64,000 bases of DNA from Alphaproteobacteria bacterium (GTDB taxonomy: Bacteria > Pseudomonadota > Alphaproteobacteria > MPNO01 > UBA830). The stretch is from the NCBI GenBank assembly GCA_965243135.1, contig OZ251539.1, positions 1,888,001 through 1,952,000 on the forward strand, given 5' to 3'. Position 1 is the first letter of the stretch, and every line of letters starts with the position of its first letter. A program made the position numbers. This document shows, piece after piece, positions 45,001 through 48,000 of the stretch.

Positions 45001-48000
45001 CCTGCGCCGCGCCGCCCGGCGCGCCGCCGAAAACGGACGGCCGCAACTCCGGAAGAGCCGCGTCGGCAACCAGCGGCCGGTCGACGGGCGGCGTAGGCGT
45101 CGAGGCGCACCGGCTTCACCCACGCGACCTGCTGTCCTTCCGTTCACGCGCCCTCCCCATTTCCGGCAGACGTAAAGCGGCCAGGTGAAAATCGTCGGTG
45201 AGACGCGAAGGTGAACGGCGAAAGGCAGCTCTCGTCGACGTCGAGTTCCTCCCGAAGCTCCCGGGCCCGGCGTCTCCCCGCCGCCGGCCGCCGGGGAATT
45301 CCCCCGCCCTGCCCTGCGGCCGCCGCGCGACGCGCCCGTCGACGAGAGCCGCCGTGACGACGAGAACGACCGCTTCTCCCGCCCCGCGGTGCGGAACCCG
45401 GAGCGCCGCCCGGCCCGCGAAGCCTGCAGGGAGACGCCGCCGGCCCCGAGGCGGCCTCCTCGGCCGGGCGGCCCGTCAAGCCGCGCGACGAACCGGCGGA
45501 ACCGGCTGCCGCCGCAGGCCGAACCGCGGGCGGCGTTCTTTCGCGGAGGCGGCCGTGACGGGAAGCCGTTCAGGCGGGCTCGCAGCCGACGACGTTGCGC
45601 TCCTCGCGGCTGAACTCCACCCCGACCAGGTGGACCGAACGTCCGAAATGGCGGTACTTGTCCGCGTAGCCCTTCTCCCGCAACTGCGCGAGCGCGATCC
45701 CCTCCCGTCCGCGCTCCACCACCTTGAACTCGAACAGGTAGACGCGCCCGCCGGAGCGGATCGCCATGTCGGCGCGCCCCCGGCTGCCGCTGTCCTCGGC
45801 CACCGGCTCGAGGCCCTCCATCAGGAAGCAGCTGTGGATGACGCTCGCGTAGTGGGCCTCGTACACCGGGCTGTTCATGTACCACTGGTGCGGGATGGCG
45901 GCGAAGACGCCGCGGAACAGGGTCTCGACGCGCTTGAAGTCGTTCGCCGCCAGCACCCAGCCGCAGGTTCTCCGTCTCCTCGCGGGCCTCGTCCGGGAGC
46001 AGTTCTTCCAGCAAGGCCTCGCCCAGGCTCTGGCGCACCTCGAGGTTCGGGTAGTCCAGCCGGTAGCGCCCGTCCTCCTCGCCGGCGATGGGTAGAGTCG
46101 AGGACTGGCGCGTTAGCTTTAGGGTCCGGTGGATGTTCCGTCGCTTTCGCTCCGGGCCTCAGTCCGGCTCCCGTGGCCACGTTTCCAGTCCCCGCTCTCC
46201 GAACCGGACGTGCGGATTTCCCGCGCCTCCAGCAGGATCATGCGTCTCGCCCACGGATGGATTGTCAGCGTTCCCAAAAAACGGCCGGTTTTCCGGACCC
46301 GGGAGTTGCACCGTCTCCCATATTTTCCGCCTGTTCTCGCTTTCCAACCCGTCGCCGAGCCTGTTTACGCCTCGACGACCCCGGCCTCTCGACCGGGTTC
46401 CTTCGCTTCTGCATGTGACGCTTCCGGGATCTCTGGCATGTAGTCGGTTGTTAGGCATAGCCAATCTCCGAGCCCTTCTCCCTTGCGGCGCCCTTCCTCG
46501 CCTGAGGCCCCTTTCCTCCGCCGGCGTTACCCGGCTTCTCCGGTACTACGGGCCTCTCCGCCACCCTGCCGGCCCGGCCTGCCCCTCGCGGGGTTCCGGT
46601 TGACTCGTGCGCGTCACCGACAGGGCTTCCCGTGTTGCTGCTTCCTTCATCTTCCATGCGTGCCGACATCACTACCCCGGCGGAAACGGTCGGTGCTTTT
46701 GTCGTTCTCTTCCCGACCGTCGGCGGCTTTCCCCTAACCTCAGGAGGGTCAGCTTCCGCATTGACCGTTTCGAGGCCTGCTCAATGTTCACTACTCGTTT
46801 CGGCCCGCGTGTTCGCTGAGCGGCCTTCGCCGCCCTTTCCCAGAGTGCTTCAGCCTACATCGTTACCTCCGTAAACCGCCCTGGCCGCTACCAACCGGAA
46901 CGACAGTTGTTGGGTGGGATTCGCACCCACCAGAAGAAAGCGCCTTTCCACGGCGCACTGAGGTAGCCGGTCTGGAACAGAAGCGCCTGGACCGACATCC
47001 TGTCCACGTCGAAGGTCGAGAGCAGGCTCTCGCTGCCGATCATGCCGTCCAGGCGGGGAGTGGGCAGGTTGCGGCGCGCCAGCGTCTCGATCAGGAAGGT
47101 CGGCGTGCCGCTCTCGAACCAGTAGTTGCCGAACTTGCGTTTGTCGAACAGCAGCAGGAGGCCGAACGGGTTGTAGACCCTCTCCGGTCCGAGCCAGTTG
47201 TAGCCGTTGTACCAGCGCCGGATCTCGTCCCGGTCCAGGCCCTCGAGTTCCGGGGCGAAGACCGCGTCCAGTTCCGCGTCCGTGCAGCCGCAGATGGCGC
47301 CGTAACGCTCGTCCAGCGTGATGTCGTTCAGGTTGTTCAGGCCCGAGAACAGGCCCGTTAACTTGCTCACCCCCGTCAGGAAAACGAAACGGAGATGCCT
47401 GTCGCAGTCCTTGATCATCGCGTAGAAGCCGCGCAGGAAGCTGCGGTTGGCCAACGCCAGTTCCCGGTCGCCGAGCGCGTCCAGGATCGGCTTGTCGTAT
47501 TCGTCCACCAGAACGACCGCCCGCCGCCCGGTGCGCTCGTGCAGCGTCCTTATCAGGCGCCGGAAACGGACCGCCGCCCCGGCGGGATCCGGTTCGAGGC
47601 CGGCCAGCCGCTCCGTTTCCTCCAACTGGTCTTCCACGTTTTCCCGAACGAGGTCCGGGGAGTCGAAATTGCCCCCGCCGAAGCTGATCCGCACGACAGG
47701 ATGGCGCGCCGACCAGTCCCACTTGCCGTGCACGGCGAGGCCCCGGAACAGCTCCTCGCTCCCCTCGAACAACTCCTGCAGCGTGTCCACCAGCAGGGTC
47801 TTGCCGAACCGGCGCGGACGCGACAGGAAATAGTACTTGCCCCTCTCGACGAGGCGGCGCGCATGCTCCGTCTTGTCGACGTAGTAGCAGTCCATCCCCC
47901 GGATCTCCCGGAGGGAGGAAAAGCCGATCGGAAGCATGCGTTTCGTCATTCGAAGAGAGTAGGCCGCCGCGCCGGAACCGTCAAGAAGTCGGCGGCGGCA

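Follow-up and report, generated by a model that had tools for sequence, protein, structure and literature searches.

The 867-nt intron at positions 46092–46958 (reverse strand) of the window, by which we mean the whole 64,000-nt stretch of DNA analysed here, is an ORF-less group II intron and probably one fossil of an extinct burst of its intron family. Copy B, as it is called below, most likely can neither move nor splice, and judged by its sequence its most likely effect is the disruption of its host gene, which is additionally damaged by a 5-nt frameshift. An earlier note on this DNA had described an ORF-less intron in sense orientation at the motif LLFQTGYL|TI; the intron ends, the covariance-model match and the same junction at six contig sites bear this out.

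We took the 5′ end GUGYG and the 3′ end AY as the boundary signature of group II introns (Rfam clan CL00102). Copy B reads GUGCG...AC, beginning with GTGCG at 46954–46958 and ending with CTCTAC, whose last base is 46092. For domains I–IV we asked for a covariance-model match at or above the gathering score, which is 49 bits for RF02003; copy B scores 75.1 bits (E 2.5e-15). Domain VI should carry a bulged branch-point A 7–8 nt from the 3′ splice site; in the predicted fold of copy B (z -4.5) such an A is bulged at window 46098, the seventh base from the splice site. No column covarying with the +1 base, as EBS3/IBS3 would, was seen by eye among the aligned copies. The parts of copy B, its exons and the related copies are given in Table 1.

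Table 1. Coordinates of the parts and exons of copy B and of related intron copies. Positions are window positions unless marked as contig positions.
Feature	Position	Strand	Remarks
Rfam group-II-D1D4-4 match, within domain I	46793..46932	-	75.1 bits, E 2.5e-15, model positions 1–138 of 138
EBS2 candidate CGGUC	46763..46767	-	Tentative; possible partner GACCG at 5′-exon positions -14..-10
EBS1 UGAGGU, in hairpin loop	46737..46742	-	Complementary to IBS1 ACCUCA; covariation with 5′ flank
Domain IV filler specific to ORF-less copies (intron positions 487–701)	46258..46472	-	Replaces the ~1.27-kb RT region
Defective domain V	46203..46233	-	Alignment with copy A and with G053 and G001; folds; RF00029 16.3 bits
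Long domain VI with bulged branch A	46092..46200	-	Predicted fold, z -4.5
5′ exon, AAA-ATPase_like part, 330 codons + 1 base	46959..47949	-	IBS1 46959–46964; IBS2 46968–46972
3′ exon, PDDEXK_9 part	45570..46091	-	5-nt deletion near window 45956, frameshift at about residue 377
Copy F, ORF-less, 793 nt	36188..36980	-	3′ exon DUF1703; 5′ exon replaced; EBS1 deleted; domain V defective
Copy I, 5′-truncated at intron position 118	26060..26734	-	Adjoins argJ-like fragment; 3′ exon DUF1703
DUF1703-junction copies (contig positions)	1150704, 1934092, 3618447, 4119187, 2889578, 2665261–2668831	+, -, -, -, -, -	Same junction

Searching the genome with the 867-nt sequence gave 37 matches, among them the 100% self match of copy B and eight other ORF-less copies; with five copies that bear a reverse transcriptase (RT) gene (J, K, L, M and N), the family comprises nine ORF-less and five RT-bearing members. 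The five paralogs, the sixth copy broken by an IS and the two remnants reported before were all recovered: the copy at contig 2665261–2668831 (reverse strand) contains an IS-type transposase frame, and the remnants F and I, both in the window, keep only their 3′ exon junction (the ArgJ-like assignment beside copy I comes from comparing the peptide with the ORF by eye). Outside DUF1703 there are two more complete ORF-less copies, at contig 3851437 and 5058249, and RT-bearing copies at four sites. RF02003 has 15 matches genome-wide, 12 of them above the cut-off, rather than the six counted previously. All nine ORF-less copies share one domain IV filler, which we took as the mark of a single origin. 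This filler was found at 10 places in the genome and in none of 60 relatives; against the RT-bearing copies only scattered blocks of 8–14 nt of the ORF-less domain IV align, with no similarity to the RT region. Introns of the endonuclease-less kind are expected to show a strand bias relative to replication. By GC skew, replication starts near 5.15 Mb and ends near 1.64 Mb, and by hand assignment 11 of the 14 copies lie along the direction of replication and three (M, H and N) against it; the host genes are similarly oriented, and two of the three exceptions lie near the inferred origin.

Copy B is inserted in sense between A and CC of ...CAG ACC GGC TAC CTC A|CC ATC... in a gene of the AAA-ATPase_like/PDDEXK_9 type (formerly DUF1703). 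In the window, the host gene is interrupted by the intron and also frameshifted; the Pfam criterion for the host family, PF09820 and PF08011 above their gathering scores, was tested on its nearest intact paralog (96.8% DNA identity), which gave 200.8 bits (2.8e-59) and 58.1 bits, respectively. With 153 matches in the genome the family has about 150 copies, arranged in arrays and 87–99% alike, so that “several paralogs”, as it had been put, names the one conserved site correctly but understates its setting. In 96 intact copies of the DUF1703 unit the similarity begins ~47 nt before the ATG and extends slightly beyond the stop codon, and terminal repeats that would make the unit a transposon were not seen among them.

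Six DUF1703 sites are occupied by the intron, plus two remnants, and the exact target is intact and empty in 53 intron-less paralogs, 11 of them within the window; the spread therefore stopped far short of saturation. The occupied sites read ACCTCA in six of six cases and ACCTGA in none, against 53 ACCTCA and 50 ACCTGA among the empty ones. Contrary to the claim that the target is the most conserved motif of the family, it ranks 39th among 1480 24-nt windows. When the introns are spliced out in silico, the frames of hosts A and C are open (two of the five ORF-less hosts, as had been found before; two of six counting the IS-bearing copy) and those of B, D, E and K are broken. Broken frames are thus found in 4 of 6 hosts versus 36 of 132 intron-less paralogs, numbers too few for a significant excess. 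Splicing of B, C and D would yield the ligated-exon junction …CTACCTCA|CCATCG…, and contigs from four runs of unrecorded kind do contain junctions that omit exactly 46092–46958; because about 130 intron-less paralogs yield the same junction, these contigs are uninformative on splicing. The pattern TTYCARACNGGNTAYYTNAGTGYGCC for the same insertion site had no matches in a species-representative genome collection from which the window's genome was possibly excluded, and none of the 53 matches there to the looser pattern CARACNGGNTAYYTNAGTGYG had a DUF1703-like LLFQTGYL context or the intron 5′ sequence. No paper in the literature collection searched brings DUF1703 and a group II intron together. 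Bacterial group II introns rarely lie in sense inside conserved coding sequence.

EBS1 of copy B (UGAGGU) pairs with IBS1 (ACCUCA) at six of six positions, and full six-position complementarity to the upstream 6 nt, by Watson–Crick or G-U pairs, is found in every copy in the genome that keeps EBS1 and its original 5′ junction. These copies have five EBS1 variants over seven distinct sites (the DUF1703 site for A–D and K, and the sites of G, H, J, L, M and N); the other pairs of EBS1 and 5′ flank are TGAGAT with ATCTCA, AGGAGC with GCTCCT, GGAAAC with GTTTCC, GTTTTC and GTTTCT, and AGAAAC with GTTTTT. The EBS2 candidate CGGUC forms five pairs with GACCG in the DUF1703 lineage, and seven EBS2 pairs are found in the related genome G053; at the ectopic copies there are only three to four, cross-matches score equally high and the region varies between subfamilies. 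For each of the six hosts the five most similar paralogs (91.5–96.8% identical) are intron-less, and on an exon tree of 138 paralogs intron presence requires six changes for six hosts under parsimony. The covariation of EBS1 and the intron-less closest paralogs point to RNA-guided insertion of the intron into DUF1703 paralogs after their divergence, and the entry after divergence proposed in the earlier note holds.

Recombination among intron copies is evident, and gene conversion had been raised as an alternative cause of the likeness of the introns. By BLAST, the introns are 97.5–99.3% identical and the fifth copy 91.0%, much as reported; the low value of the fifth copy is driven by gaps, since it is 98.7–99.0% identical in aligned columns and the difference lies in 64–71 gap columns of short deletions, not in substitutions. 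The host exons are 89.1–92.3% alike (exons 1 and 2 together). Introns B, C and D have no substitution difference in aligned columns, and their 3′ exons differ at +7/+8, +15 and +37, those upstream of C and B from about -27. The 3′-exon differences of these three copies, which begin as close to the intron as +7/+8, disfavour gene conversion as its carrier.

None of the RT genes of the family is intact, in agreement with the first description. The five RT-bearing copies each contain several frameshifts or stops or IS insertions, all six PF00078 matches in the genome are partial and lie within these five copies, GIIM has four matches, and a tblastn search of the genome with the protein of an intact relative found no other RT beyond a 46-residue remnant. 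An intact RT/maturase, which we sought, in domain IV or elsewhere in the genome, as a criterion of a mobile group II intron, is thus missing from copy B, which has no ORF, and from all five RT-bearing copies, and the driver RT is absent from the present genome; the assembly is one contig and 98.8% complete, and an intact RT could lie on a plasmid or an unassembled replicon. Other genomes from the genus and the order of this bacterium contain intact relatives, G053 with four full-length copies of similar score (75% identity to the query) and G001 with one copy, all at other target sites. The G053 copy that we read has a 446-aa ORF with TIGR04416 at 316.8 bits (cut-off 300), RVT_1 and GIIM; a DNA-binding or endonuclease domain is missing from the RT/maturase of the intact relative. 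Among solved proteins the GsI-IIC RT comes closest (E 1.7e-47), a protein match that does not settle the RNA class.

The copies had been treated as intact ribozymes, which the alignments do not support. For domain V, described as catalytically essential in PMC2882425, we required a hairpin of ~34 nt with the AGC catalytic triad, a 2-nt bulge and an RF00029 score of at least 40 bits. Copy B scores 16.3 bits. Copy A (contig 1150704–1151571) scores 42.7 bits with a canonical fold and is the sole match in the genome at the gathering score, so that the earlier statement that RF00029 stays below this score applies to copy B and not to copy A, and the lack of matches is explained by a lesion of domain V. 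Of the 13 copies in the domain V alignment, 12 (B among them) lack the 5′ strand that holds the AGC triad, and also the 2-nt bulge: their domain V is 6 nt shorter with two adjacent changes, and the canonical form is kept in A, G053 and G001. In copy B the canonical strand GAGCCGGAU is replaced with a loss of 6 nt, and the predicted helix uses the upstream GCUGGA instead, with UGC in place of AGC and no 2-nt bulge; in the fold, the upstream UGCUGGA can stand in for AGCCGGA, with the triad's G-U and C-G pairs preserved. The lesion is common to ORF-less and RT-bearing copies at many sites, and the identical introns B, C and D all have it. EBS1 is deleted in copies E and F. Only copy A retains a canonical domain V together with EBS1 and an open host frame, and it still looks able to splice, whereas copy B is, on this structural evidence, most likely a relic that no longer splices, in a host gene with a frameshift of its own. 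If the lesion was present before B, C and D inserted, domain V must be functional in its altered form; alternatively, the lesion would have spread or recurred after insertion.

The history that we consider probable would start with an intron of ~1.9–2.0 kb, with an RT/maturase lacking an endonuclease domain, that entered the lineage and gave rise to a single derivative that lacked the ORF and had another domain IV. Reverse splicing guided by EBS/IBS pairing would have spread both of them, with the RT for the ORF-less form supplied in trans, while subfamilies with different EBS1 sequences arose. One of these, with EBS1 UGAGGU and the EBS2 candidate CGGUC, would have matched GACCG..ACCUCA|C, which encodes QTGYL|T in the ~150-copy family, and may have entered at least six paralogs independently (eight counting the remnants). 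The family would then have died out as all RT genes were broken, the AGC strand was lost in all but one of the copies aligned over domain V and EBS1 was lost in two.

The inactivating lesions are dominated by deletions of 5–7 nt, with a narrow size range and a sequence motif, and they belong to an excess of 5–6-nt deletions in the repeated DNA of this genome. Microhomology at the deletions is little; Ku (PF02735) was not found in the genome and NucS_C gave only weak partial matches (33.8 and 23.2 bits). In the literature on microdeletion spectra we found just general pseudogene work. We regard it as a tentative possibility, rather doubtful at present, that what cut down the introns, the RTs and roughly one in four DUF1703 paralogs was not ordinary mutation but an organism-specific removal of 5–6 nt from repeated DNA that prefers ATCNN(N) words. 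One candidate agent is a nuclease that makes staggered cuts, the ends then being joined; another is the cleavage of mismatched heteroduplexes between diverged repeats. Recurrent hits at spots defined by the motif would, if real, produce identical lesions, that of domain V included, in copies that were active at insertion, and would also produce copies that lack substitution differences yet differ by 6-nt deletions. Such repeat-directed deletion would in effect be a bacterial counterpart of repeat-induced mutation and, if enzymatic, the excess of microdeletions may outweigh the intron in importance.

Three other readings deserve weight. The same deletions might instead be consensus errors of the assembly, in which case domain V, RTs and host frames would be intact in reality. 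Their odd, narrow sizes and sequence motif, and their restriction to multi-copy sequence, where polishing is error-prone, would fit, and contigs cannot show which copy has which allele. We nevertheless hold this to be very unlikely: the same deletion alleles recur in independently built contigs from public runs of two studies (for instance 5 nt missing at 46130 and 46234, 6 nt missing at 46408 and, at 45864, 6 nt more than in B), and some of these contigs run gapless across the defective domain V. Moreover, the same pipeline detected no event of 5–7 nt in 20 paralogs of a related single-contig genome. If the lesions are real, the ORF-less copies could still be functional, splicing without a maturase of their own (by self-splicing, a host factor, or a domain V or protein acting in trans) with the altered domain V tolerated and the host genes expressed. 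Twelve of the 13 copies in the domain V alignment have the altered form, at seven sites with matching EBS1, for which spread after the change is the simplest reading; the substitute 5′ strand holds six pairs, the triad's G-U and C-G among them, B, C and D have kept domain VI, the branch A, EBS1 and their splice-site ends intact, and the spliced frame is open in host C. Yet the triad then reads UGC opposite U, an internal loop takes the place of the 2-nt bulge, RF00029 reaches just 16.3 bits at B, the maturase is gone from the genome and hosts B, D, E and K are frameshifted. The substitute strand of the RT-bearing copies, GACCGA, has by eye no triad-like geometry, so these copies cannot have moved with it. 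Functional introns thus seem improbable to us.

Scarcely more probable is a spread at the DNA level among DUF1703 paralogs, by gene conversion or unequal recombination with retrohoming once at most. It would account for the multiplication of copies with a defective domain V, and the paralogs lie in arrays of closely similar units. The introns also form a mosaic of indels in which ATGCAG and TAGTGA deletions are common to otherwise distant copies and B, C and D differ just there, and EBS regions are common to ORF-less and RT-bearing copies despite their different domain IV. However, identity does not continue past the ends of the intron (B, C and D soon differ in their exons) and the closest paralog of each host is intron-less. 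The restriction of the occupied sites to ACCTCA is predicted by EBS1 pairing and not by homology, and the copies outside DUF1703 each have a matching EBS1 of their own, which means that RNA-guided insertion operated in the intron family. We thus continue to favour an extinct burst by reverse splicing. It would amount to a dated fossil record of such a burst in one bacterial genome, with EBS retargeting, an ORF-less rider on the RTs of others, the invasion of a coding motif and extinction, in which six paralogs hit against 53 perfect targets left empty make the stopping point of the spread readable. Copy A versus B, C and D offers a natural pair for the effect of the domain V lesion, and the synonymous CTC/CTG split at the target a natural test of EBS1 specificity.

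RmInt1 of Sinorhizobium meliloti and its relatives encode a protein without an endonuclease domain and home into multi-copy insertion sequences. As there, the RT/maturase (of the intact relative) lacks a DNA-binding or endonuclease domain, and a multi-copy target permits many insertions, of which remnant and degraded copies persist; literature on such introns includes PMC4181065 and PMC4615759. Unlike the insertion sequence targeted by RmInt1, the target here is a protein-coding family of cellular type, entered in sense and in frame, and the likeness to RmInt1 does not extend to an established structural class or to a clear strand bias relative to replication. The extinction dynamics of bacterial group II introns described by Leclercq and Cordaux (2012; PMC3522654), as far as the sections drawn on go, resemble the present case in that a family invaded, proliferated and now consists only of inactive copies; the difference is that 5–7-nt deletions dominate here rather than ordinary point mutations and truncations.

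The nearest parallel in proliferation comes from the TeI3/TeI4 introns of Thermosynechococcus elongatus (Mohr, Ghanem and Lambowitz, 2010; PMC2882425), which descend, according to the portions of the report considered here, from an ancestral intron that proliferated within the genome. In both cases a single ancestral intron multiplied within one genome, an ORF-less derivative of single origin became more numerous than the ORF-bearing form, subfamilies with diverged EBS sequences occupy sites with matching IBS, and one ORF-bearing copy is interrupted by an IS; ORF-less copies rely there, and would have relied here, on the RT of a related copy. In contrast to the six potentially active RTs reported for T. 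elongatus there is no intact one here, and remnants of the ORF termini are not visible in the ORF-less domain IV. Domain V, in addition, is damaged here in all but one of the copies aligned. Whereas the T. elongatus insertions in those portions of the report are mostly intergenic, the main target here is a conserved coding motif of a protein family of about 150 copies.

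An earlier note on this DNA had described an ORF-less group II intron within the motif LLFQTGYL|TI of a DUF1703 gene, and the observation is real. The intron in the window, copy B, begins with GTGCG and ends with CTCTAC, matches the group-II-D1D4-4 model (RF02003) over all 138 positions (75.1 bits, E 2.5e-15; gathering score 49), and the predicted fold of its 3' part is a long domain VI in which an A bulges out seven bases before the end. It carries no reverse transcriptase (RT) ORF and lies in sense orientation at ...CAG ACC GGC TAC CTC A|CC ATC... in its host gene. The nearest paralog of that gene that is intact has matches to both PF09820 (AAA-ATPase_like) and PF08011 (PDDEXK_9, formerly DUF1703).

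The 867-nt intron finds 37 matches in the single-contig genome of 6.10 Mb. In total, there are eight complete ORF-less copies, one 5'-truncated ORF-less copy and five RT-bearing copies, plus smaller fragments (Table). RF02003 matches the genome 15 times, in 12 cases above the cut-off, instead of the six hits listed previously, and the family is larger than the earlier note had it. A-E and K at the DUF1703 junction and F and I as remnants had been correctly recognized; the remaining copies, G, H, J and L-N, lie at other sites. All nine ORF-less copies have in common a 215-nt filler in domain IV, for which no similarity to the RT region could be detected; this genome holds it at 10 places, and none of the 60 relatives searched has it. 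Because part of this filler is also held by an older, more diverged relic, the ORF-less form is not very recent.

Table. Positions of intron copies and associated features on contig OZ251539.1
Feature	Contig position	Window position	Strand	Site or remark	EBS1 loop / flank at other sites
A, ORF-less, complete	1150704		+	DUF1703 junction	
B, ORF-less, complete	1934092	46092-46958	-	DUF1703 junction	
C, ORF-less, complete	3618447		-	DUF1703 junction	
D, ORF-less, complete	4119187		-	DUF1703 junction	
E, ORF-less, complete	2889578		-	DUF1703 junction	
F, ORF-less, complete	1924188	36188-36980	-	DUF1703 3' exon only; microdeletions	
G, ORF-less, complete	3851437		-	elsewhere	GGAAAC / GTTTCC
H, ORF-less, complete	5058249		+	elsewhere	TGAGAT / ATCTCA
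I, ORF-less, 5'-truncated at intron position 118	1914060	26060-26734	-	DUF1703 3' exon only; microdeletions	
J, RT-bearing	1990194-1992112			elsewhere	AGGAGC / GCTCCT
K, RT-bearing	2665261-2668831			DUF1703 junction; transposase-like ORF (485-codon open frame, stop to stop)	
L, RT-bearing	4047310-4049266			elsewhere	GGAAAC / GTTTTC (needs G-U)
M, RT-bearing	4810502-4812418			elsewhere	GGAAAC / GTTTCT (needs G-U)
N, RT-bearing	5953.9-5959.9 kb			elsewhere; several transposase-like ORFs (408, 479, 483 codons)	AGAAAC / GTTTTT
Diverged relic	2599421-2599786			74% identity; part of ORF-less domain IV filler and 3' end	
Microdeletion, host gene B		near 45956		5 nt; breaks frame after in-silico splicing	
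Microdeletion, domain V of B		46203-46233			
Intron-less copies, example junctions		18423, 20658, 28751, 41256, 50530, 63699			

Domain V is canonical in copy A, which reads GAGCCGGAU-GCGGGAAAUCCGC-AC-GUCCGGUUC, and in the intact introns of two related genomes (G053 and G001). Every other copy that could be aligned there, 12 in all, has lost 6 nt of the 5' strand and shows the same two adjacent changes; B is among these 12, which take in both the ORF-less and the RT-bearing lineages. The predicted fold of A is the textbook hairpin of eight pairs, a 2-nt bulge and five pairs; in that of B the upstream GCUGGA is recruited, UGC stands for AGC, and the bulge is closed into an internal loop. This lesion accounts for the weakness of the domain V-VI model (RF00029) to which the earlier note had pointed, the threshold being passed in the genome only at A (42.7 bits versus 16.3 bits at B). 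Six bases of EBS1, the loop that pairs with IBS1 in the 5' exon, are also missing in E and F. Splicing in silico keeps a single open frame in hosts A and C and a broken one in B, D, E and K, in agreement with the two of five open ORF-less hosts reported before; frames are intact in 96 of 132 intron-less paralogs. Given these lesions in domain V, EBS1 and reading frames, A alone among the copies still looks competent, B most likely sits as inert DNA within a pseudogene, and the family is probably dead in this genome.

Repeats of ~230 nt, at which ORFs give the same peptides, flank host gene B (window about 43.8-44.1 kb and 48.0-48.3 kb), and the truncated copy I is joined to a fragment reading like the ArgJ gene at window 48095-49285. 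The arrangement around host B and copy I suggests segmental rearrangement in the paralog array. Cumulative GC skew along the contig is lowest near 5.15 Mb and peaks near 1.64 Mb, giving unequal replichores of ~2.6 and 3.5 Mb, which are consistent with large rearrangements.

How the copies reached their sites can be read from EBS1. In A-D and K this domain I hairpin loop is TGAGGT, the exact complement of ACCTCA, and elsewhere other loops face their own flanks (Table). Such covariation is the hallmark of RNA-guided reverse splicing. Another variable loop, with the sequence CGGTC, is a candidate EBS2 that could pair with GACCG at -14 to -10, with weak support at ectopic sites. Entry after the paralogs had diverged, as previously proposed, is supported because the six hosts account for six changes in intron presence in a tree of 138 paralog exons, because the five most similar paralogs of every host (91.5-96.8% identity; 89.1-92.3% between hosts) lack the intron, and because introns B, C and D show zero substitution differences whereas their 3' exons diverge from +7/+8. 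Gene conversion between paralogs is the alternative route, over which we would favour retrohoming. The ORF-less form itself has moved, since the ORF-less copies G and H sit at matching sites of their own; the RT was presumably supplied in trans, an activity on ORF-less copies shown by experiment for the Thermosynechococcus family (PMC2882425).

The host family is massively expanded in this genome, with 153 matches to the exon-1 protein versus 0, 8, 20 and 2 in four other genomes of the genus. Among the 132 intron-less paralogs whose sequence spans the junction, 53 present the exact target GACCG...ACCTCA|C and 50 present ACCTGA, with a synonymous CTG codon; within the window, the target is perfect in 11 of 12 intron-less copies. 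The leucine codon is thus near-evenly divided at empty targets between CTC, which pairs with EBS1, and CTG, with its mismatch at -2, and all six occupied sites have ACCTCA. That only CTC sites are occupied may simply reflect which targets the intron chose, or it may be a relic of selection favouring resistant sites. The target had been called the most conserved motif of the family; its conservation is high but not the highest, because it ranks 39 of 1480 24-nt windows among paralogs. The repeated DUF1703 unit begins ~47 nt before the ATG and ends shortly after the stop codon, with no terminal repeats seen; its upstream part holds TTGACG-N17-TACCCT, which resembles a promoter that would leave almost no leader.

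No intact RT is left to drive the family. All five RT-bearing copies contain several frameshifts or stops, with additional IS-type insertions in K and N, which bears out the earlier statement that every one is interrupted; the six partial PF00078 matches in the genome do lie within J-N, GIIM has four matches, and tblastn with an intact relative finds nothing outside J-N except a 46-residue remnant. Of 61 genomes searched, this one included, 12 contain matches to an RT-bearing copy. G053, from another family of the same order, has four full-length matches of like score (75% identity to the query), and the one read has an open 446-codon ORF with TIGR04416 (316.8 bits, cut-off 300), RVT_1 and GIIM, and no endonuclease domain; a single intact copy of this kind is found in G001, which belongs to the same genus as the present genome. 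These introns sit at targets other than the DUF1703 codon, and two pattern scans of a species-representative genome collection found a GTGYG-starting insert at the same codon of a DUF1703-like gene in no other genome (0 matches; 0 of 53 in the right context).

Copies at many sites carry one and the same complex domain V lesion, and yet each copy must have been active at the time of its own insertion. Three explanations remain. The altered domain V may still work, against which it counts that in the RT-bearing copies, at least, the substitute strand, read by eye, offers no triad-like pairing. Alternatively, the lesion may have passed among resident copies by recombination; that such exchange takes place is shown by other deletions shared as a mosaic and by EBS regions shared across lineages with unlike domain IV. 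Or it may recur at a hot spot.

Intron copies differ chiefly by deletions of 5-7 nt, the long state being ancestral because the intact outgroups show it. Measured against both outgroups, J, L and M have 25 deletions, of which 23 are of this size, one is 3 nt and one 11 nt long, with none of 1-2 nt; it is these deletions that broke the RT frames. The 138 DUF1703 paralogs show 51 of 90 distinct deletion events of 5-7 nt (17 of 5, 29 of 6 and five of 7 nt) and 10 of 1 nt. Other repeats, counted by distinct context with both families masked, give 4347, 1542, 838, 434, 815, 687 and 127 events for lengths 1-7, with a second peak at 5-6 nt; a power law has been reported for prokaryotic pseudogene indels (PMC6054270). 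The 5-6-nt excess is seen genome-wide, in copies of the intron, in RT genes, in DUF1703 paralogs and in further repeated DNA. Applied to 20 paralogs from a related genome, G004 (median identity 87.8%), the same pipeline found no 5-7-nt events. For about half of the events of 5 and 6 nt, the deletion can be aligned such that the lost word begins with AT, the third base then being C in 56-58%; the preferred form is ATCNN(N), words such as ATCCG, ATTCG, ATCGA and ATTGCG are enriched 14-69 fold, and microhomology is slight. Several of these deletion alleles also appear in contigs assembled from public data of two studies, so the deletions are not merely consensus errors. Ku was not found in the genome, and NucS-like matches are weak only.

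Copy B represents a known kind and is well preserved, and it counts as a degenerate member because it lacks one defining feature, the canonical domain V; the family gains added interest from its one surviving copy, A, and from the unexplained deletion process. As in the T. elongatus family, one ancestor gave rise to an ORF-less derivative and to subfamilies with diverged EBS, with an RT acting in trans, here presumed; a multi-copy target is a point in common with RmInt1. Four features set the family apart: a target that is a conserved motif within the coding sequence of an expanded protein family, an ORF-less domain IV with no visible ORF remnants, the absence of a surviving driver RT, and damage to the catalytic domain in almost all copies.
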